A stretch of DNA of 58,340 bases from Patescibacteria group bacterium (GTDB lineage Bacteria > Patescibacteriota > Patescibacteriia > SG8-24). This document shows, piece by piece, positions 16,801 through 26,414 of the stretch. The DNA is taken from NCBI GenBank assembly GCA_034716415.1, contig JAYEJB010000071.1, forward strand, positions 1-58,340, written 5' to 3'. The notes below the pieces were generated by a model. It made no database searches and was not told the DNA's origin. It saw only the letters and a list, made by a program, of their open reading frames with translations. Numbering within the stretch: the stretch's first letter is position 1; every line of letters begins with the position of its first letter. Both the position numbers and the translations under genes were made by a program.

Positions 16801-17121
16801 CTAGACCTTGATTTCATCGATCAATATCTCCGTATAGTGTTGCCTGTGGCCTGTCTTCTTCTTGTAACGGATTTTCGGTTTGTATTTGACGACCTCAACC
16901 TTCTTGCCGCGGCCTTCACCCAATACCGTAGCCGTGACCTTGGCGCCCTTGACGGTCGGCGTGCCGACCTTGGCGTCCTTGTCGGCCTCGTCAGCGACCA
17001 GAAGCGGATCGAAGCTCAGCTTCTTCCCTTCCTTGGCTTCCAGCTTCTCGACCTTCAGCTTTTCGCCTGGCTTGACCAGGTACTGTTTTCCGCCTGTCTC
17101 AATGACTGCGATGTATCCCAT
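16801..17121 (-). CDS. rplU: 50S ribosomal protein bL21
   Basis: AVIETGGKQY, KVEKL, GHRQ.YT. Confidence 0.97.
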   Translation of the reverse strand: MGYIAVIETGGKQYLVKPGEKLKVEKLEAKEGKKLSFDPLLVADEADKDAKVGTPTVKGAKVTATVLGEGRGKKVEVVKYKPKIRYKKKTGHRQHYTEILIDEIKV

Positions 17122-17165: not shown

Positions 17166-17681
17166 TTACCTCAACGCCCCGCGCCTGTCAATATCGAACT
17201 TCACGGGCAGGCCGAGTTTGAGACCGTGCCGCGCCGCGAATCCGGCCGGCACCTCAAGCACGCTGTCCGCCTCGGTGACCGGTGAGAAGAACGGTATCTC
17301 TTCGCCTTCAACCGGCGGCGCGATCCCGATGGTGATGTCCACTATCTCGCCGTCGCGCATCCAGACCGCATCAAGCGGAATCTCCATGCCCTTCATCCAG
17401 AATTTATACTTACTCGCGGTCGCGAACAGGAACAGCATGCCGCTGTCTGCGTCCATTTCCTTACGTCCGGAAAGCCCCTTCTCGCGGGTGGCATCGCTCG
17501 CCGCGACCAGGACCGGAATCGCCGGACCGTCACCGATAGTCACGGTTCCCTTGCCGAAACCGGCCTGATGATATTTCAGCAGGCCTGTCGCCACGACGAT
17601 CGCGACGAGAACGAAAATCGTCAGGGTGGCCTTGATATCCAACCGGTTATCGTCGTCGTCTTTCCTGATGAATGGATTCAT
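17166..17681 (-). CDS. DUF192-family protein with N-terminal membrane anchor
   Basis: REKGLSGR, GMLFLF, FWMKGM.IPLD, VLEVPAG. Confidence 0.9.
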   Translation of the reverse strand: MNPFIRKDDDDNRLDIKATLTIFVLVAIVVATGLLKYHQAGFGKGTVTIGDGPAIPVLVAASDATREKGLSGRKEMDADSGMLFLFATASKYKFWMKGMEIPLDAVWMRDGEIVDITIGIAPPVEGEEIPFFSPVTEADSVLEVPAGFAARHGLKLGLPVKFDIDRRGALR

Positions 17682-18766
17682 GTCGCTTTCTCTTTCCTCT
17701 TCCTGATTATAAGCGAACCGGCCAAAGCCACAAGAAGCAGGCTGAACAGCACGCCGATCGCCACGACCTTGGACGAACCGCGCAGGAAGAGCGTCGACGT
17801 ACCGAACAGCACGGATACGAACCAGAACAACATCACCACCTGACGTTCATTGAAGCCGCTGTCGACCAGAAGGAAGTGAAGGTGGCTGCGATCTCCGGAG
17901 GTCGGTGAGCGTTTCCGTGCCATGCGTCGGATAATGACGAAGACGGCATCGAAGAGCGGCAGTCCGATGATGAGCAGTGTAGTCGCGATTTTTCCGCCGG
18001 AGATGATGGCCAGCACCCCGAGCAGGAAGCCGGCCGCGGTAGAACCGCCCTCTCCCAGGAAGATGGATGCGGGGTGGATGTTGAAGACGAGAAAACCGGC
18101 GAACACGCCCGCGACCGCGAGCGCCAGCAATGCGGTGTCGGGCTGTGAGACCTCGGCCATCATACTGACCGCCGCGATGACGACGCCGCCGATGACGACC
18201 AGTCCGGAGACGAGTCCGTCGAGGCCGTCCAGGAATTTAGTGGTATAGGTCATGCCCATCAGCCAGGCCAGCGTGAAAATATCGGCGAGGAGCGTCAGGC
18301 GGTACGGAATGCCGTCCCACCAAAGCACGATGACCCTTATCTCGTCGAGATGAAACAGCCCGCCGAGCGGGTTAGTGATATAGGTCACGCCGATGCCGCT
18401 GGCGATGATGACGAACGTGGCCAGGACCGGAAAGATGATCTGTCGCGACGGCTTCATGTCGAACCGATCGTCTATGACGCCGCCCAGTGCCAGGATCGCG
18501 ACAGCGACGGCGATACCGATGAGATATTTCGACTTGATGTATTCACCCGGCAGCCAGCCGGTCGAGTACAGGAAAAGCGCGATTGCGGCGATCGATACCG
18601 CTATCGCAATACCTCCCATCAGGGCTACCGGACGGCCGTGCTTCTTGCGAGGCAGCTTGGGCTCATCAACTATGTCGTGGCGCCTCGAAAAGGCCCGCAC
18701 AAGATAAGTGCAGGCCGCGCAGACAACGAACGCCACCCCAAAAGTGATGATCAGCTTAGTGAGCAT
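17678..18766 (-). CDS. MraY/WecA/TagO-family polyprenyl-phosphate sugar-phosphate transferase (GT4)
   Basis: GGIAI, GVIDD, FLDGLDGL, FLGEGGS, DRSHLH; the HLH motif suggests WecA/TagO-like. Confidence 0.92.
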   Translation of the reverse strand: MLTKLIITFGVAFVVCAACTYLVRAFSRRHDIVDEPKLPRKKHGRPVALMGGIAIAVSIAAIALFLYSTGWLPGEYIKSKYLIGIAVAVAILALGGVIDDRFDMKPSRQIIFPVLATFVIIASGIGVTYITNPLGGLFHLDEIRVIVLWWDGIPYRLTLLADIFTLAWLMGMTYTTKFLDGLDGLVSGLVVIGGVVIAAVSMMAEVSQPDTALLALAVAGVFAGFLVFNIHPASIFLGEGGSTAAGFLLGVLAIISGGKIATTLLIIGLPLFDAVFVIIRRMARKRSPTSGDRSHLHFLLVDSGFNERQVVMLFWFVSVLFGTSTLFLRGSSKVVAIGVLFSLLLVALAGSLIIRKRKEKAT

Positions 18767-18827
18767 ATCTGGATTGAAGGATAACAGGAAAGTGGAAGAG
18801 TGAGAAAGTGTGAGAGAGTGAGAGAGC

Positions 18828-18918
18828 TGTTTTGTCCACAGCTTGGCAAGAAAACACAGGCGGTCTGTTTCGCACCGAAACAGGCTGCCTGTTTTTCTGC
18901 CAAGCTGTGGACAAAACA
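18828..18918. repeat. Family-A variant palindrome (91 bp)
   Basis: TGTTTTGTCCACAGCTTGGCA...TGCCAAGCTGTGGACAAAACA with the same internal AAACAGGCTGCCTGTTT module. Confidence 0.85.
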
Positions 18919-19027
18919 AACACCCTGCGACCAAGCGGTCACAGGGTGAAAGTATCGTTATTGTTTCTGGGCTTTGGAGAGAACGCGAGGACCGGAGTCC
19001 TCGAGACGACCATTGCGGCCGCTTCTC

Positions 19028-21280
19028 CTATTCGCTGAGCAGGTCGGCGATGGACTTACGTCCAACGGGCGCGACGCGGCGCGCCGGACGAGGCCGAGGC
19101 TTCTCCTGCCGCCGGGGCGACTTGGAAGCAGGGCGAGGCTGAGACGAACCGTTCGAATCGACCGGCTCCACCAGGAAGACCCCGGCGCGCATCCTTGCCT
19201 TCGTCTCACGCACCAGTGTCGGTTGCCCTCTGACCGGATCCGGATACCTGTTCGACCAGACGAACCTGTATCCCCTATCCATCGCATACCACTCGGGTTT
19301 CCCGCCTTGGTTTTCACCGAGATAGAACGCGAGTGTGTGCTCCTGCAGGTCCGGATCTTTTGAACGATCCGATCGACGACCAGTAGCGGTACCGACAGCC
19401 CGAGCGGACTGTCGTCCATGGACGTCTTCACGACCCCGCTGACGAGGAGTGAAGGGGCTGTCCTTCGACGGTCCACTGAGGAAGGTCTGCAACACGATCT
19501 CCCTGATCTCATCCTTGGACAGGTTGGCCCTATAGGTATAGACCTCGTCCTGTCTGCTGGACAACCACGCAGTGCCGAACGCCGTCCTCCAGAATGGCCA
19601 GAACATGATCTGGACATCCTCGGTCGTGCCGTCAGGCATGTCGAGCGTCACGTAGTTCTCATCAGTCGAACAAAGCTGACTGATCTGACCCTCTGTGGCG
19701 TTCCTGAGGGACCAGCCATAGCCTCGATTCATGAGATCACGCTTCCGCAACTCGTAAACGGTCTCCACCGGCACCATGAGCCCTTTCCGGCCCGAAAGGA
19801 TGAAAAGACCGTCGTCGCGGACATGAAGGACGAAGTCGGCCTTCTGGTCCCTGATGGCCTCACCTTCGTCGTCCGGCGCGAACCGAGCGACCTTCGATGC
19901 GGCATCGCTTTCAGACTCGACGAAGCATAGCGTGAGATTGTTCGGCCGTCGCTCCCTTTCCGTCTTCTTGCGCCGCATGACCTGCCGAAGCCCTCCGATG
20001 AGGGTCTGTGAATAGTCACCTCCCGGATCATCCTCTTCCTCGATTCGAGTGAGAACGAACTCGAGATCCTCGTCATTGAGCACATCCGGCAGAATCCGAG
20101 CTCGCTTCAAATCAGTCATGAACTGACCCGGAGAGTGAGGAAGTTTCCCTCCCCGCTCTTCGATGTAGCTGCTCACACCCTTCAGAACCTTGGCCACATC
20201 CTTGTCCGGGATGACACGAGGCTTCCAGGTCCCCATCGCGACCGCCGGCTTCTCGATGTTGAGAATCTTGGTCCTCTCAGGGTCTCGATAGTCCCTGTCT
20301 CCCTGATCCCAATCCAGCTGGTTGTGAAGGAATGCCGCTTCCGCGCGGGACCGAAGCAGCTTCGATTCTATCGAATCCGGTCCGTACTTGGCCTCAACGG
20401 CGGGCATGAAGCCCATCTGGCGTCCGCTCTCGTCATCATCCTCCACATTCTCCTTGATGAGGACGTGAAACATCATCATCTCCCGCGCGACCCTGTGAGT
20501 ACGGTGAACGTCCTCCACGGCGATCGTCGAGAAGTAATGGTGAATCCCGTCGAGGGCGATAAAAGCGAGCTGGCACACATCTTCCGGATTCCTGTTCTCG
20601 CTCTGCCGGTTGATCGAGACGATGAGCTCGCGGAGTGACCTGATGACGTTCTTCGTCGTCTCGGCATTCTCTCCCAAGTCGACGATAGTGCGCTGCCTGC
20701 CTGGCGTCGTATCCGTGGCGTAGGCGTCGTTATCGCAGATCACGTCACAGATCGCCTGCATCGAGGTGACGAAGTCTTCCAATTCCACCCTCTCCTCATC
20801 GTCCAGGATCTCAAGACGCGTCTTGAGTTCTTCAGGCATGCCTTCGTACGTCGACCCGTAGAAAGTCGAGAGGTAATCGCAGAACCGAGCCAGGGCCGCT
20901 TCGTCGGCCCGGATCACTTTTAGCCCATGATGATCGAACGGCGTCGCGAACCTGAGGTTGTCCATGCCGAGATAGCCCTTCGTCATGAAGTTCCACTCCA
21001 GCACATCCTGCATCGTGATACGCCCGGAGGCGATCTCATCCTGCCAGGGATAAAGCGAGGCCGGCTTGCTGAAATCGAGCGGTGGCGTGAAAATGCGCCT
21101 CCACTCGTCGCTGATCGAACAGGCTTTCCGCACGACCGCCTTACGGTCGATCATCCACATGCCGGTCAGACAGTCCAGGTCTGGACCGTTGTGTCCGACG
21201 ACAGTGCGAATGTGGTATCCGGCCGTCACGAGGTCTAGAGCCTTATCAAACTTTTCATCAGATACGGTAGCATCGTTCAT
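19028..21280 (-). CDS. 750-aa protein with N-terminal DHH-superfamily-like motifs
   Basis: VVGHNGPDLDCL (HxxPDxD) and PFDHHG; the rest is unrecognised; basic tail. Confidence 0.65.
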   Translation of the reverse strand: MNDATVSDEKFDKALDLVTAGYHIRTVVGHNGPDLDCLTGMWMIDRKAVVRKACSISDEWRRIFTPPLDFSKPASLYPWQDEIASGRITMQDVLEWNFMTKGYLGMDNLRFATPFDHHGLKVIRADEAALARFCDYLSTFYGSTYEGMPEELKTRLEILDDEERVELEDFVTSMQAICDVICDNDAYATDTTPGRQRTIVDLGENAETTKNVIRSLRELIVSINRQSENRNPEDVCQLAFIALDGIHHYFSTIAVEDVHRTHRVAREMMMFHVLIKENVEDDDESGRQMGFMPAVEAKYGPDSIESKLLRSRAEAAFLHNQLDWDQGDRDYRDPERTKILNIEKPAVAMGTWKPRVIPDKDVAKVLKGVSSYIEERGGKLPHSPGQFMTDLKRARILPDVLNDEDLEFVLTRIEEEDDPGGDYSQTLIGGLRQVMRRKKTERERRPNNLTLCFVESESDAASKVARFAPDDEGEAIRDQKADFVLHVRDDGLFILSGRKGLMVPVETVYELRKRDLMNRGYGWSLRNATEGQISQLCSTDENYVTLDMPDGTTEDVQIMFWPFWRTAFGTAWLSSRQDEVYTYRANLSKDEIREIVLQTFLSGPSKDSPFTPRQRGREDVHGRQSARAVGTATGRRSDRSKDPDLQEHTLAFYLGENQGGKPEWYAMDRGYRFVWSNRYPDPVRGQPTLVRETKARMRAGVFLVEPVDSNGSSQPRPASKSPRRQEKPRPRPARRVAPVGRKSIADLLSE

Positions 21281-21445: not shown

Positions 21446-21602
21446 GAATTGTTGACATAAAAAATTAGTATTCGTGAAGGGATGTTTTATCCCCAATTCA
21501 ACGTTAATACTGACAGGCACTAGTACCTGTCAGTATTCAGTGAAAACTGGGGATAAAACAAAAAAACCAGCCACCAGGCCGGACAACCTCCCGCTTCCCG
21601 CT

Positions 21603-24344
21603 TCAAGCTCTCTCCACCCGAATCTCCCCTCCCACATCATAAATAACCGTGTCTTTCCGCCCGATCTCACCCTTAAGCAGGGCATCCGCGATAGCAGTAT
21701 CGACCTTATCCTGAATGACGCGCCGTAGGGGCCGCGCCCCGTAAAGCGGATCATAGCCCTCGTCGGAGAGTTCCTGCACCGCCCCGTCGGTCACCTCAAA
21801 ATAGATTCCTTTCTCCTCAAGCCGCTTACTGACCTTCTTTAGCATCAGCTTCGTAATCAGCAACAACTCGTCCGGCTGGATCGGAGTGAACACGATGACG
21901 TCATCGAACCGGTTGATGAATTCCGGACGGAAATGGTCCTTCAGATGTTCGCCTAACAGCCTCTCCTTGATACCCTCGACGCTCATGTCCCGCTTGATGG
22001 CGTCCTGAATGAAGTGCGCGCCGGCGTTCGAGGTCGCAATCAATATGACATTCGTGAAATCGATGACACGACCGGTGTTGTCCGACAGCCGCCCGTCGTC
22101 CATGACCTGTAAGAACAGCGTCAGGATGTCCGGATGCGCCTTCTCCAGCTCGTCCAGCAATACCAGCGAGAACGGCTGTTTCCTGACCGCCTCGGAGAGC
22201 ACGCCGCCGACCTTGTCCCCGGCCGGTTCCCCGATCATCTTGTATATCGCGGCCTTGTCCTGATACTCCGACATGTCGAGCCGGATCATCGAGTCTTCGC
22301 TGCCGAAATAGTTCTCAGCGAGCGTCTTGGCGAGTTCGGTCTTACCGACACCGGTCGGCCCCAAAAACAGAAAATTCGCGATCGGTCGCTCCTTCTCACG
22401 CAGGTCCGCTCCCGCCCGTCGCATCGCCGAAGCGACCGCGGACACCGCCTGATCCTGTCCGATGATGCGCTCATGCATCTTCTCTTCGAGCTTCAGCAGT
22501 TTCTCCGACTGTTCCTCGGTCAACGCGGTCAACGGAATATTGGTCTTCTCGGAGACGATCGCCGCCACATCCTCGCCGCCGACCATCGACTTGGCTCCAC
22601 GATTCTTACGTACGGCCTGCGCCACCTCGCGCGCGACCTCAATGGACTTCTCCGGCAGATAACGCTCATGCATGTAGCGGTCGCTCATCTGTACTGCTTT
22701 CTCCACCGCGTCATACGAGAAGAAGACGCCATTCGTGTAACCGATGCCGCCGACCTTGCTCTCTAGAATATGGATCGCTTCGTCCACATCCGGCTCGCCG
22801 ACAACGATCTTGATCAACGCTTCACCGAGCGCGGATCCCTCGACCGCGTTGACGTACTCCCGCGGAGTCGACGTGCAGATAGCGAAAAAATAACCGCGCG
22901 ACAGCTCCTGCGCGAAGACCTTCGACAGGTCGATACTCTCGCCGCTCCCGGCAGTGATACCGACCATCCCGCCCACGTCATTGACCGCCAGCACGATATT
23001 ACCCGAACGACCGACCTCATAGAGCGCGGTCAGCAACCGTTCCTGCGCCTCGGCCGGCGTCGCGCCCGACACGAGCTGTGGCAGATTGAGACTCACCAGC
23101 CGCTGGTCCTGCAAAATTTTCGGCACGTCCTCCTCGACCATGCGCTGGGCCAACCCCTCGATGATGGCGTTCTTGCCCACGCCCTGATGCCCGGCCAGAA
23201 TGACGCTCTTCCGCCCGCCTTCGATAGCCCGGAACAGCGCTTCGAACTCTTTCTCGCGAGCCACGACCGGTGCCAAACGGTTAAATTTCGCGGCCGTGGT
23301 CAGATCCGAACTCAAAGTGTCGAGATACGGCGTCGCCATCGATGTCATGGCCCGGTTCATCGCGCCCTTCGGCTTCAGACGAGCGGCCGCGGAAAACCTC
23401 TTGTGCCTATTACGGAGACGCTCGTCGACCAAGTTCCACTTGACCACGTTGCCTACTTTCCGCGCGTCCACCCCGAACTCAAACAGCATATCCTGCAACG
23501 TCTGATCGGCCTGAACGGTCGCCAGAAACAGCTCGGTAGGATCGACTTTCACTTCCTTGCTCTCGTACGCGATGATGTAGGCGTCGATGAGAACGCTTTC
23601 GGTCTCGCCGGACAGCACGGTCGCGTGTTCGTCGTTCTGAAACTCGACCAGAATCTTACCGAACTGCTCATTGAACATGTCGAACTTCAGACCGAGACGC
23701 ACCAGCATCACCCCGACTTCCATCACCGCAATAAGCGATCCGAACAGATGCGCCGGCATCAGCTGACCATGCTTCAGTTTCCTGGCGAGACGGAACGAAT
23801 CGTTGACCGCCTTGATTGCCTGCCGGGAGTAAGCCGCCGATACGTCAATCCGCCGGTCTTTCGGTAGTGCCCGCACGGCCTCCCAGACCGAATCATCGGT
23901 CGGCAGACGTAGCTCCTCGATCTCCTCGCCGTACGTGCGAAAACGGACCGCCTTGCGCCGCGTGGCAGCGGCCACCAGACGGTAATAAAGCATCCCCAGA
24001 CAAAGCACGCCGAACCAAAAGAGCAGCAAGCGCGGATGCGGGTCATGCCAATAAGCCAGGGACAACACGGAACCGCTGCCGCGACTCGCGTGCAGGGCCA
24101 GCATGGCGAAACCGAGCAATCCCAACAACGCCAATATGAAATTGGTCACGGCGTTGACCCCGTTCTTCAGACTCTCGAGAAAGACGGCGAAAACATCGAT
24201 CCGCCGCCCCCAATACAGGAACAACGATCCGTAAATCTTACCGGTGCCGATACCGCGGCAGATTGGACAGGTCGACCCGTTCTCATGGCCGCCACCATCG
24301 CAGCGCCCACAGGATATCGTGATTGTATTCTCGGTCAATTCCAT
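21603..24344 (-). CDS. Clp/Hsp100 AAA+ ATPase with N-terminal zinc finger and two transmembrane helices
   Basis: CGRCDGGG..CPICRGIG, two hydrophobic segments, Clp_N-like region, NBD1 GHQGVGKN, NBD2 GPTGVGKT/LDELEKAH/TSNAG/GARPLRR. Confidence 0.9.
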   Translation of the reverse strand: MELTENTITISCGRCDGGGHENGSTCPICRGIGTGKIYGSLFLYWGRRIDVFAVFLESLKNGVNAVTNFILALLGLLGFAMLALHASRGSGSVLSLAYWHDPHPRLLLFWFGVLCLGMLYYRLVAAATRRKAVRFRTYGEEIEELRLPTDDSVWEAVRALPKDRRIDVSAAYSRQAIKAVNDSFRLARKLKHGQLMPAHLFGSLIAVMEVGVMLVRLGLKFDMFNEQFGKILVEFQNDEHATVLSGETESVLIDAYIIAYESKEVKVDPTELFLATVQADQTLQDMLFEFGVDARKVGNVVKWNLVDERLRNRHKRFSAAARLKPKGAMNRAMTSMATPYLDTLSSDLTTAAKFNRLAPVVAREKEFEALFRAIEGGRKSVILAGHQGVGKNAIIEGLAQRMVEEDVPKILQDQRLVSLNLPQLVSGATPAEAQERLLTALYEVGRSGNIVLAVNDVGGMVGITAGSGESIDLSKVFAQELSRGYFFAICTSTPREYVNAVEGSALGEALIKIVVGEPDVDEAIHILESKVGGIGYTNGVFFSYDAVEKAVQMSDRYMHERYLPEKSIEVAREVAQAVRKNRGAKSMVGGEDVAAIVSEKTNIPLTALTEEQSEKLLKLEEKMHERIIGQDQAVSAVASAMRRAGADLREKERPIANFLFLGPTGVGKTELAKTLAENYFGSEDSMIRLDMSEYQDKAAIYKMIGEPAGDKVGGVLSEAVRKQPFSLVLLDELEKAHPDILTLFLQVMDDGRLSDNTGRVIDFTNVILIATSNAGAHFIQDAIKRDMSVEGIKERLLGEHLKDHFRPEFINRFDDVIVFTPIQPDELLLITKLMLKKVSKRLEEKGIYFEVTDGAVQELSDEGYDPLYGARPLRRVIQDKVDTAIADALLKGEIGRKDTVIYDVGGEIRVERA

Positions 24345-24349
24345 CTTTA

Positions 24350-24730
24350 TCAGGATGACAACAGCCCCAACAGCTGATTACCGAACTCGTAGATGACGAA
24401 AGGCGGCAACAACAACCAAAGCAGGAACACCGCAAACATGACGACGATCAACAGGAGCAATAGTACCGAATAGAAGACGATCGTCACTAGCCGCATGAAA
24501 AAACTAATGAGGCGGCTCGCGATATCGCGCTGGCCGAACATCGGTACGAACAGGTTCTTGACCCAGACACTCCAACCGAGAGCGATAGCCACCCCGGCGA
24601 CAGTCCCGCCACAAAACCGCGCCGCGCGCAGCGTTCCGCCCGTGTACCACCAGATCGGGTAATACAAGACCGAGCCGACGAGGTCAACCGCGACGAATTT
24701 CGTTGCCATTGCGACTCTATTCTGTGCCAT
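24350..24730 (-). CDS. Small membrane protein immediately upstream of the Clp ATPase
   Basis: 126 aa; YYPIWWYT, LFVPMFGQ.D, long hydrophobic C-terminal half; 5-nt gap to the clp start. Confidence 0.8.
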   Translation of the reverse strand: MAQNRVAMATKFVAVDLVGSVLYYPIWWYTGGTLRAARFCGGTVAGVAIALGWSVWVKNLFVPMFGQRDIASRLISFFMRLVTIVFYSVLLLLLIVVMFAVFLLWLLLPPFVIYEFGNQLLGLLSS

Positions 24731-24848
24731 ATATCGATAGGCTCATTATAGAGCAGGAAGCGGGAAGCGGGAAGCGGGAGGCAGGATGTAGGAAGACCTC
24801 ATTTAGACCTCCTGCCTCAAGCCTCCCGCTTCGTGCCCTTCTCAATAT

Positions 24849-24956
24849 TTGTCATTGCGAGCGAACGCGCCTGCCTGCCCCTGCCTGCCGGCAGGCAGGG
24901 GCAGGCAGGAAGCAATCCCGACGGGATTGCCGCGGCCTTCGGCCTCGCAATGACAA
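24849..24956. repeat. Family-B palindrome carrying a 40-bp nested insertion
   Basis: TGTCATTGCGAG...CTCGCAATGACA; 24870-24909 is the 20-mer CCTGCCTGCCGGCAGGCAGG inserted into the centre of a second copy of itself. Confidence 0.9.
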
Positions 24957-25135
24957 GAAAAATGAGATTCCGCAATTCCCACCATAATCCCTCAAGCCAG
25001 GCTTGAAGCCTGGCTTGAAATAATTAAGAGGGTGACTCCTCAGCTTCAACAAAAAAACGCCCCCTGGGCGCCATTTCTTCTCCCGCTTTTCCCGCTTCTG
25101 CCCCTTCCCTGCCTGCCGGCAGGCAGGTCCCGCTA

Positions 25136-25486
25136 TTATTTAACCGCCACCGCCGCCGGGCCGGTCGTCAAATAATCCACCCGCGACACCGGCACGAAAC
25201 CGAGTCCGCTGACGTGCGAGTCGATGTTTTCCATGGCTTGCACCGAAACCATCTCAAGATCCAGCTTGCGTCCCTGATCACGCAGTTCGGCGATGTGCTT
25301 CTCGGCCAATCTGATCGCGAATCCCTTGGTCGCGGCCCTGTTGTTCATCATCAGATACCCCACGAAGAGAGAGAGTATCAGCGCGGCCAACGCGATATTG
25401 GCCACCATAACCCAATCCAGCCTGCGCCAAACCCTCGCCCTGACGGCTACTTTCGTCTTCCTGTTTGTCTTCCTTCGGTAAGGCAT
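25136..25486 (-). CDS. ftsL: FtsL-like cell division protein (116 aa)
   Basis: Follows rsmH; basic N-terminus, one transmembrane helix, coiled coil, LGFV tail. Confidence 0.7.
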   Translation of the reverse strand: MPYRRKTNRKTKVAVRARVWRRLDWVMVANIALAALILSLFVGYLMMNNRAATKGFAIRLAEKHIAELRDQGRKLDLEMVSVQAMENIDSHVSGLGFVPVSRVDYLTTGPAAVAVK

Positions 25487-25487
25487 C

Positions 25488-26414
25488 CTAGTCGTTCTTT
25501 TGGATGATACGTAGTTTTGCGCTCCGTGAGCGCGGGTTTTCCGAGACTTCCTGCTCGGACGGCGTAATCGGCTTCTTAACGACAGCAGTCGCCTCATCTG
25601 ATCTCACCTTGCTCCGGATGAACTGCTTGACGATGCGGTCCTCGAGCGAATGGAACGAGATAACCGCCAGCCGCCCGCCGTCGTCCATCGCATCGAACAG
25701 CGCCGGTAGCGCCTCCCTCAGCGTGTTGAGTTCATCGTTGACCGCTATCCTCAACGCTTGAAAGGTCTTGGTGGCGGGATGTATCCTGCCGCGTCTCCTC
25801 CTTGGATTTACCGCGCCAGCTACGATTTCCGCCAGCCGTAGCGTTGAAATGATGCGCTCGCCTTTTCTGGCGGCGATAACAGCCGAGGCGATACGTTTCG
25901 CCTCGCGCTCCTCGCCGTACTTCATCAGTAGCATCGTGAGCTCTTCGGCAGTGTTTCCGTTGACGATTGCGGCGGCAGTCAGCGACCCGGCTTGCCGTGA
26001 GCCTGTCGAACGGTCGTAACGCATATCGAGCGGCCCGTCCTGCCTGAAACTGAAACCGCGGGACGGGTCGTCGATTTCCATCGATGAATATCCGAGATCC
26101 AGAAGTGCCGCCTGAAACGACCCGAAGGAGGTGGAGAGGAGGACCTGATCGAAGTTCCGATAGCTCTCGCGGACAAGCATTGCGCGCGAGCCGAAATCTT
26201 CGAGCGTCCTGCGGGCCGTTTCAAGCGCCGCTTCATCGAGATCCAGACCCAGAAGGCGACCGTCCGGTGCCGTACGCTCAAGTATCGCTTCAGCATGTCC
26301 ACCGCCACCGACCGTACAGTCGATGACCGCCATGCCTGGCTTGAGCGCCAGCGCTTCAACGGTTTCGTTCAAAAGGACGGGTATGTGCTTTTTGTTTTCG
26401 TCGGGGTTTTCCAT
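25488..26414 (-). CDS. rsmH: 16S rRNA m4C1402 methyltransferase
   Basis: HIPVLLNE, DCTVGGGGH, DLGYSS, RGFSF, PLDMR, HPATKTFQALRIAVNDEL, ISFHSLEDR, NPRSRSAKLR. Confidence 0.98.
   Translation of the reverse strand: MENPDENKKHIPVLLNETVEALALKPGMAVIDCTVGGGGHAEAILERTAPDGRLLGLDLDEAALETARRTLEDFGSRAMLVRESYRNFDQVLLSTSFGSFQAALLDLGYSSMEIDDPSRGFSFRQDGPLDMRYDRSTGSRQAGSLTAAAIVNGNTAEELTMLLMKYGEEREAKRIASAVIAARKGERIISTLRLAEIVAGAVNPRRRRGRIHPATKTFQALRIAVNDELNTLREALPALFDAMDDGGRLAVISFHSLEDRIVKQFIRSKVRSDEATAVVKKPITPSEQEVSENPRSRSAKLRIIQKND

Follow-up and report, generated by a model that had tools for sequence, protein, structure and literature searches.

In the 58,340-nucleotide stretch of Patescibacteria DNA analyzed here (positions 1 to 58,340 of contig JAYEJB010000071.1, assembly GCA_034716415.1; hereafter the window), two adjacent genes encode a class I Clp/Hsp100-like ATPase of 913 amino acids (aa), predicted to be membrane-anchored, and a small putative polytopic membrane protein. 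Judged from the sequences, this membrane-Clp/small-partner unit is an undescribed, Patescibacteria-specific branch of the Hsp100 proteins, and it is strongly supported that the small protein is an obligate partner of the predicted membrane ATPase. Our reading of the whole is that the pair would form a ClpP- and DnaK-independent membrane remodeller or extractor that is driven by its second ATPase ring (D2) and has a non-canonical pore. We give this reading about an even chance; our confidence in the architecture and in the complex is much higher, and that in the client and the mode of action is lower. Searches of the literature library at hand revealed no paper describing a membrane-Clp/small-partner family. 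The ClpC that is mentioned in a TM7x transcriptome paper is the host's gene.

The first ATPase ring is degenerate and the second is intact

The ATPase has the class I Clp/Hsp100 architecture, i.e., a first ring domain (D1) with an AAA_lid_9 domain, followed by an AAA_2-type D2 and a ClpB_D2-small domain (Pfam matches to AAA_2, E value 7e-52; ClpB_D2-small, 3e-23; AAA_lid_9, 2e-9; and AAA). Two traits of the superfamily are missing: a D1 capable of catalysis, and an aromatic residue in the pore loop of each ring. The AlphaFold2 model of the protein has a mean predicted local distance difference test (pLDDT) value of 83, and in Foldseek searches it superposed on ClpC and ClpB protomers with template modelling (TM) scores of 0.86-0.88 and root mean square deviations of 3.2-3.8 Å over ∼585 columns.

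A first-pass annotation of the window had reported a degenerate first nucleotide-binding domain, with GKN instead of GKT and VND instead of IDE, and an intact second one. Alignment with the ClpB (contig C43) and ClpC (contig C11) of the same genome confirmed both points and revealed that the Arg-finger pair ERRF of D1 is replaced by GEAL. Motif states were counted over 138 non-identical members of the family. A canonical D1 Walker B, with its DE, was present in 0/138 members, so that the alignment of orthologs, which had been proposed as a check, extends the degeneration to the whole family. The Lys of the D1 Walker A is kept in 120 members and is an Arg in the other 18, the glycines of the P-loop are kept in 138/138, and the Thr is kept in 29/138. 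In D2 the Walker A, the Walker B, the sensor-1 Asn, the Arg finger and the sensor-2 Arg are invariant (138/138). Mean pairwise identity is 69% for D2, 51% for D1 and 31% for the N-domain, and lies at 23-31% for the N-terminal regions. Because D1 shows 51% identity, we take it to be kept as a structural module and not to be decaying. Two CxxC motifs, present in 104/138 relatives, and the universal degeneration of D1 show that the features picked out by the first-pass annotation are, in these alignments, family traits and not chance.

The middle (M) domain of ClpB was said to be missing, and so it is: in the window's protein 99 aa (98-102 aa in the family) lie between the end of D1 and the D2 Walker A, whereas the ClpC and the ClpB of the same genome have 164 and 222 aa there, respectively, and residues 404-454 of Bacillus subtilis ClpC are skipped in the phmmer alignment. 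The same applies to the IGF/L loop expected after the D2 sensor-1 (TSN). The loop between sensor-1 and the Arg finger has a fixed length of 32 aa in 136/137 relatives, not far from the 40 aa of the post-sensor-1 region in the genome's own ClpB, and an IGF-type tripeptide ([ILMV]G[FLM]) was found in only 2/137 relatives, at non-equivalent places; we take these two to be chance tripeptides. None of the orthologs has the ClpP-docking loop. A canonical D1 or a means of binding ClpP in the orthologs would have contradicted the first-pass annotation, and neither was seen.

A small predicted membrane protein is genetically coupled to the ATPase

The small gene lies upstream of the Clp gene, and its stop codon (TGA) is separated from the Clp ATG by 5 nt; the open reading frames are exactly as first annotated, with a 126-aa membrane gene that ends 5 nt upstream. 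An alternative start at M8 (position 24709) would give a 119-aa form, which is the version in the protein database. The family of the small protein comprises at least 151 database proteins, all of them from Patescibacteria where the source names the organism, and the small protein has no match in Pfam or NCBIfam. A profile search of 1.84 billion representatives yielded 610 clusters at 50% identity; the 150 that were listed are all stand-alone proteins of ∼87-168 aa, except one of 414 aa, and no new domain context appeared among them. The AlphaFold2 model is all-helical (pLDDT 89.7), and a Foldseek search of this model against the PDB gave no match better than an E value of 4.7. The most conserved part of the protein is a loop, NLFxPMFGQRD..GR.ISFFMR (in a looser form, NLFxPxFGxxD..GR.ISFxxR).

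In 79/80 species loci the profile of the small protein matches the open reading frame that immediately precedes the Clp gene and shares its strand, and in 49 of these loci the gap between the two genes is within ±10 nt. The sole exception (JAZDMY010000069.1) has no small gene within the 10 kb that were fetched; its upstream spacer is AT-rich and repetitive. Co-occurrence was surveyed in 401 genomes of the phylum, 25 of which belong to the window's class. Both genes were found in 21 of these 25 genomes and neither in 4, with no discordant case.

Outside the window's class, the domain of the small protein is adjacent to the Clp gene or in the same frame with it (18 loci fetched). In 14 of the 18 loci a single protein of 827-901 aa is encoded, with the small-protein domain at residues ∼10-115, followed by further hydrophobic segment(s), the N-domain region, D1 and D2 (hereafter the fused form); in the other four the domain is a separate adjacent gene. 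When the database relatives of one fused protein were inspected, 116/120 carried the small-protein domain. These relatives are named candidate division WWE3, and one protein labelled Saccharimonadales, a label that is unverified, also has the fused domain. Such a "Rosetta-stone" fusion is the strongest evidence available that the small protein and the Clp ATPase act as one unit. The coupled membrane partner of the first-pass annotation is thus strongly supported, and is extended by the fusions to other lineages.

The N-terminal region carries a putative zinc ribbon, two predicted transmembrane helices and a probable divergent N-domain

The CxxCxGxG/CxxCxGxG finger and the two hydrophobic segments that had been described ahead of the Clp body are present in the sequence. 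The cysteines of the putative zinc ribbon are arranged as C12-GR-C15-DGGG and C26-PI-C29-RGIG, and the strict double CxxCxGxG occurs in 53/138 relatives. The best Pfam match of the ribbon, to Anti-TRAP, is weak and non-significant (E value 0.077), and the DnaJ_CXXCXGXG family gave no match in the Clp-like protein even at E ≤ 10. We rejected a DnaJ-type zinc-finger domain (PF00684): it needs four CxxCxGxG repeats, and the two found here correspond to one predicted zinc site. The AlphaFold2 model has β hairpins in this region. A conserved motif, FLYWGxRID (residues 42-50, with a nearly invariant W45), precedes the first predicted transmembrane helix, and Y121 and R122, in the region of the second, are nearly invariant as well. 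The basic stretch RRKAVRFR just after the second helix fits a location on the cytoplasmic side.

The region that follows is assigned to a divergent Clp N-domain. The NCBIfam ClpA alignment starts at residue 174, which corresponds to model position 3, and the helical bundle predicted by AlphaFold2 has pLDDT values of 82-92. The Pfam Clp_N match is non-significant (E value 0.22); the precomputed domain list of the database includes PF02861. Between the N-domain and D1 there is a family-specific linker with a mean pairwise identity of 63%, versus 31% for the N-domain. Fused lineages carry a related motif, G.NRGW/MT..TP.LD, and canonical ClpB and ClpC proteins are without it.

Family distribution and classification

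A word-indexed search retrieved ∼79 full-length relatives with 40-82% identity; the closest named relatives of the source genome are Uhrbacteria and other Patescibacteria. The scores then fall sharply, from 590 to 453 bits, where the canonical ClpC and ClpB proteins start. In a scan of one genome per species, a protein related to the first 600 residues, the family-specific part, turned out to be encoded in at least 579 species genomes. The titles of these genomes name Uhr-, Falkow-, Buchanan-, Kuenen- and Magasanikbacteria, and some titles of metagenome-assembled genomes are evidently mislabelled.

The first-pass annotation had held that the protein is of neither the ClpA/C nor the ClpB type, and three lines of evidence agree with this: the missing M-domain and IGF loop, the low equivalog scores and the position in the tree. 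The NCBIfam models for ClpB, ClpA, ClpK, ClpG and ClpV all score below half of their equivalog cut-offs. For ClpB (TIGR03346), the highest-scoring one, the score was 545 bits against a cut-off of 1232, and the M-domain is absent; for ClpA/ClpC (TIGR02639) it was 478 against 993 bits, and the IGF loop and the short M-domain are absent; for ClpV/TssH (TIGR03345) it was 426 against 885 bits. Type VI secretion genes were absent from the neighbourhoods inspected, the whole genome not having been searched for them. The protein is not an FtsH, as it has no protease domain. In a maximum-likelihood tree, the ClpB and ClpC proteins of many phyla, including the genome's own copies, form one clade (SH-aLRT support of 100, branch length of 0.52), and the split (two-gene) and fused membrane forms fall outside it, across that branch. 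This tree was a quick search with some long branches, in which ClpA and ClpV were not sampled.

The two membrane forms are not equivalent. In the fused clade D1 is mostly canonical: IDE is present in 8/13 fetched proteins and in at least 95/120 database relatives. What unites the split and the fused forms, on present alignments and predictions, is the association with a membrane domain and the loss of the M-domain, the IGF loop and the pore tyrosines; the predicted catalytic death of D1, usually together with a zinc ribbon and an extra transmembrane helix, is confined to the split clade, to which the window's protein belongs. A role in defence was also considered and rejected, since PADLOC gives only generic D2 matches (DolB and PDC-M37B) and, unlike a defence island, the two genes are inherited vertically and keep one core-genome position throughout a whole class.

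Proposed mechanism and alternatives

We propose that the Clp-like protein would form a hexameric ring, because the trans-acting Arg finger of D2 is invariant. With two transmembrane helices in the chain, both the predicted zinc ribbon and the body of the Clp would lie in the cytoplasm, in agreement with the basic stretch after the second helix, so that the N-domain/D1 face of the ring would point toward the membrane. This face would be held to the inner side of the membrane by ∼6 × (2+3) helices. D1 probably only binds nucleotide, as an assembly ring, and D2 alone would hydrolyze ATP and be the only motor. The machine would work without ClpP and without coupling to DnaK, because the IGF loop and the M-domain are absent and the genome has a separate ClpC, ClpB and ClpP. 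The clients, which the partner subunit would present to the ring, may be proteins that are embedded in the membrane or cross it; they would be pulled or remodelled via a pore in which the tip of the shortened D2 loop is aliphatic or aromatic and replaces the GYVG Tyr, and would be released rather than degraded.

Several observations weigh against this proposal. A point missed in the first-pass annotation is that the aromatic residue of the pore loop is lost in both rings; losses of this kind abolish threading by ClpB and by Hsp104. The canonical D1 pore loop reads K-[YF]-RGEFE; the window's protein has SGATPAEAQER at the same place, and an aromatic residue is found there in 0/138 members. The D2 loop, GEPAG---DKVGGVL, is 3 residues shorter than GAPPGYVGYEEGGQL and its tyrosine is gone; the phmmer alignment to B. 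subtilis ClpC has the same 3-residue gap, which deletes the Tyr of GYVG, and PPG[YF] is kept in only ∼5/138 members. The fused clade has the D2 tyrosine in 0/111 proteins, the loop being PPGQ, PPGH or shortened, and has no D1 aromatic residue at the canonical position of the pore loop. FtsH is present and could already cover the extraction of membrane proteins. No substrate clue is conserved across the superfamily, as the neighbouring WecA-like, lepB and prfB genes are each lineage-specific. Moreover, we infer the hexamer, the membrane insertion, the physical complex and the ATPase activity from sequence. In favour of a working pore, 124/138 members have L, I, Y, F, V or M, and one more has Ala, just behind the GG of the D2 loop, at the position that is Gln in canonical proteins; this hydrophobic tip (125/138) suggests that the pore still contacts something. 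A membrane extractase, as envisaged in the first-pass annotation, is thus plausible from the topology and is weakened by the loss of the aromatics in both rings and by the presence of FtsH. The other role it had envisaged, a motor linked to secretion or to pili, was not borne out, as no pilus or secretion genes are found in the conserved neighbourhood.

The wholesale loss of the aromatic paddles in both clades favours what would be the main rival, a membrane machine that does not thread its clients. Here ATP-driven movements of D2, acting via a rigid D1 ring and the N-domains, would open, close or rotate a membrane assembly, and the partner subunits and transmembrane hairpins would form a gated channel, a transporter or a mechanotransducer (cf. 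Bcs1, Torsin-LAP1 and FtsEX). Such a machine would account for the loss of the aromatics with retention of all catalytic residues, for a Gly-rich D2 loop that is 3-5 residues shorter, for a membrane domain that is the only universally conserved partner, and for the highly conserved loop of the small protein (NLFxPxFGxxD..GR.ISFxxR). It does not readily explain why selection should favour a hydrophobic tip on the shortened loop (125/138) or why the predicted Clp N-domain, the usual recruiter of clients, is retained, and no channel or transporter fold was matched by the model of the small protein. We regard this rival as possible, although rather doubtful. That the hexamer, with 24-30 helices, is a new membrane machine that has given up threading, with D2 motion gating or driving a membrane conduit, we hold to be unlikely; if true, such a conduit could give these host-dependent, biosynthetically poor bacteria a route across the membrane for macromolecules or envelope precursors.

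Alternatively, the pair could assist or regulate the WecA/TagO-like transferase encoded nearby, as a cell-envelope glycopolymer factor in the synthesis or export of a wall polymer or glycolipid. Of the 60 loci of the class with enough flank, 50 have the WecA-like gene (PF00953) downstream of the Clp gene, 31 of them within 100 nt, and DUF192 and rplU genes usually come next; genes for GT4 glycosyltransferases, DUF4012 and CLIPPER-like proteins are found upstream in some members, and mraZ-rsmH-ftsL in ∼30/80 loci. This adjacency is not kept outside the class: the WecA-like gene is absent from the fetched loci of fused relatives, whose neighbours are prfB and sometimes signal peptidase I. In the window itself a 750-aa orphan, a terminator and a promoter-like site part the Clp gene from the WecA-like gene. 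Genomes of the Candidate Phyla Radiation (CPR) are strongly syntenic, so that adjacency alone is weak evidence. The envelope link is therefore treated as class-level synteny and not as functional coupling, and we consider a glycopolymer role improbable.

An ordinary role, either as a ClpC/ClpA-type unfoldase delivering substrates to ClpP at the membrane or as a DnaK-coupled ClpB-type disaggregase, would agree with ClpC and ClpB being the best sequence and structure matches and with the presence of ClpP in the genome. We find it scarcely credible for a protein with neither an IGF/L loop nor an M-domain, with a dead D1 and no pore tyrosines, with scores below half of every equivalog cut-off and a place outside the ClpB+ClpC clade, and in a genome that already has a canonical ClpC and ClpB. 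It is also very improbable that the protein is a paralogue in decay, or that it serves only as a structural scaffold and has no function as an enzyme. The degenerate D1, the lost pore loops and the low identity of the N-terminal regions (23-31%) could be so interpreted, but the catalytic residues of D2 are 100% conserved over the 138 members and are conserved also in the fused clade, the mean pairwise identities of D2 and D1 are 69% and 51%, and the gene is kept in 21/25 genomes of the class, which are of ∼1 Mb.

Organization of the locus and other Clp-type genes of the genome

The source genome assembly is 1.3 Mb in size and 97% complete. The coordinates of the features are given in Table 1. 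The small gene and the Clp gene look like a self-contained operon in the window. The TATAAT box in front of the small gene is probably the promoter of this predicted two-gene unit; a consensus promoter scan missed it, as there is no good -35 element.

Table 1. Features of the membrane-Clp locus and their positions in the window.
Feature	Coordinates	Strand	Remarks
Small membrane protein gene	24350..24730	(-)	126 aa from the first ATG
Clp-like ATPase gene	21603..24344	(-)	open frame, 913 aa; predicted membrane-anchored class I Clp/Hsp100-like protein
Putative C4 zinc ribbon, residues 12-33 (CGRCDGGG ... CPICRGIG)	24246..24311	(-)	predicted cytoplasmic
Predicted transmembrane helix 1, residues ∼62-88	24081..24161	(-)	Kyte-Doolittle hydropathy; AlphaFold2 helix 51-86
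Predicted transmembrane helix 2, residues ∼106-126	23967..24029	(-)	Kyte-Doolittle hydropathy; AlphaFold2 helix 104-128
Probable divergent Clp N-domain, residues ∼153-323	23376..23888	(-)	NCBIfam ClpA alignment; AlphaFold2 helical bundle
Family-specific linker ARLKPKxxMNRAMTxxATPxLD, residues 321-342	23319..23384	(-)	P325 and T334 invariant
D1 (NBD1), conserved pseudo-ATPase ring module	22545..23312	(-)	motif states, 138 members
D1 Walker A, GHQGVGKN	23169-23192	(-)	
D1 pore loop, SGATPAEAQER	23037-23069	(-)	aromatic-free
D1 Walker B, VLAVNDV	22974-22994	(-)	dead
D1 Arg-finger site, ALGEALIKI	22806-22832	(-)	fingers lost
D2 (NBD2) and D2-small domain	21606..22502	(-)	only predicted catalytic ring
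D2 Walker A, GPTGVGKT	22338-22361	(-)	
D2 pore loop, GEPAGDKVGGVLSE	22191-22232	(-)	shortened
D2 Walker B (with LLDELEKA)	22137-22166	(-)	
D2 sensor-1 (TSN)	22020-22037	(-)	
D2 Arg finger (with PEFINRFD)	21903-21929	(-)	
D2 sensor-2 (GARPLRR)	21720-21740	(-)	
TATAAT box	24745..24750	(-)	14 nt 5′ of the small gene's first ATG; found by reading the sequence
Terminator-like hairpin and T-run	21567..21582	(-)	∼20 nt past the Clp stop codon
Terminator-like hairpin	25056..25072	(-)	after the ftsL-like gene; lies between the mraZ-rsmH-ftsL and small-gene/Clp units
Promoter-like site	21445-21417		in front of the orphan gene (750 aa)
WecA/TagO-like polyprenyl-phosphate sugar-1-phosphate transferase gene (PF00953)	17678..18934	(-)	neighbour, not a demonstrated part
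DUF192 gene	17166-17681		after the WecA-like gene
rplU	16801-17121		after the WecA-like gene and DUF192

The orphan gene between the Clp and WecA-like genes (19028-21280, minus strand) has no match in Pfam, NCBIfam or PADLOC. Most relatives have nothing at this place; one of them (L008) has a different orphan, of 426 aa, at the same spot. Upstream of the small gene, a ∼400-nt spacer (24731-25135) that extends to the ftsL-like gene is full of GC-rich palindromic repeats (cctgcctgccggcaggcagg and relatives) and also contains direct repeats of the CCCGCTTC type. The ftsL-like gene itself (25136-25597, minus strand), which comes after rsmH, gives a weak match to the FtsL model (E value 1e-5, below the cut-off), and its product has an Arg/Lys-rich N-terminal extension of ∼60 residues.

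Among the fused relatives, four loci (L093, L094, L098 and L110, of the WWE3 type in at least L093) have the fused gene directly downstream of a short signal peptidase I gene (Peptidase_S26). A release-factor gene follows the fused gene directly in L093, L094 and L110, and after a gap of ∼340 nt in L098; RadC is encoded further upstream of the fused gene in L094 and L103. A link to signal-peptide processing was rejected: lepB beside fused genes in 4/18 loci and an SppA-like gene near one split locus are too sporadic.

The genome also encodes ClpP (contig C5), a ClpC with IGF (C11), ClpB (C43) and an FtsH with Peptidase_M41 (C27), and the membrane Clp would therefore be an addition and not a replacement. 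ClpX was not found in an AAA_2 search of the 97%-complete genome. The genome's own ClpB has a long M-domain and yet an IGF tripeptide (STIGFGDGEDEGD; region 18299-18820 of contig C43), which lies in an enlarged loop after the D2 sensor-1, where ClpA and ClpC dock ClpP; this is unusual for a ClpB. Contig C67 encodes a 424-aa single-ring protein that resembles the D2 of ClpB and keeps the pore-loop tyrosine (PPSYVGY).

Comparison with known systems and significance

ClpC (of B. subtilis and Staphylococcus aureus, and ClpC1 of actinobacteria) is the best match of the window's Clp in sequence (E value ∼1e-131) and in structure (TM score 0.86-0.88), with 38-41% identity over the double AAA+ body. 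Both have D1, D2 and D2-small in this order, and the predicted N-domain of the window's Clp would take the same place before D1 as that of ClpC. The window's Clp differs from ClpC by the absence of the M-domain, the IGF loop and the pore-loop tyrosines and by its dead D1, and it adds a putative zinc ribbon, a predicted membrane hairpin and a putative obligate membrane partner. In the tree, as noted above, it falls outside the ClpB+ClpC clade. With ClpB/Hsp104 it has in common that it is a two-ring Hsp100 without a ClpP loop; it differs in having no DnaK-coupling coiled-coil M-domain, no pore tyrosines and no live D1, and in being, as predicted, integrated in the membrane. ClpE, a chain of which was among the PDB matches, and ClpX have an N-terminal Cys4 zinc module before the AAA+ body, as has, by prediction, the window's Clp, but they are soluble, dock ClpP via IGF-type loops and keep GYVG pore loops. 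The defence proteins DolB (Dodola) and PDC-M37B share only a generic AAA_2 match in D2 (E value 7e-30).

A precedent for an Hsp100 hexamer that works with a dedicated membrane partner is PTEX of Plasmodium, in which HSP101 acts with the EXP2 pore; HSP101 chains (6e10 and 6e11) were among the sequence matches. HSP101 is soluble, keeps the tyrosine loops and the M-domain, and docks on the pore with its D2 face to push cargo out. The anchor of the window's Clp, unlike that arrangement, is N-terminal, which would turn the D1 face toward the membrane. In FtsH, Msp1/ATAD1 and Bcs1, N-terminal transmembrane anchors set an AAA ring against the membrane, and membrane proteins are extracted or translocated; Bcs1 does so without classical aromatic paddles. 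These proteins differ in that they have only one AAA module, which belongs to the classical clade and not to the Hsp100 proteins; FtsH bears a protease, and none of them is known to work with a small membrane protein of this family as its dedicated partner. Torsin-LAP1 is another functional analogue.

Hsp100/Clp proteins are the textbook soluble unfoldases, whose mechanism is built on pore-loop tyrosines, on activity in both rings and on a link to ClpP or DnaK. The family described here is a widespread natural variant of them, nearly universal in one CPR class, and can be studied as an experiment of nature that shows what remains possible for an Hsp100 ring once its paddles are gone. Having both a split and a fused form provides a handle for biochemistry, the fused form being a predicted single-chain version of the complex. 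The family would mark a conserved membrane function in the Patescibacteria, whose cell biology is largely uncharacterized.

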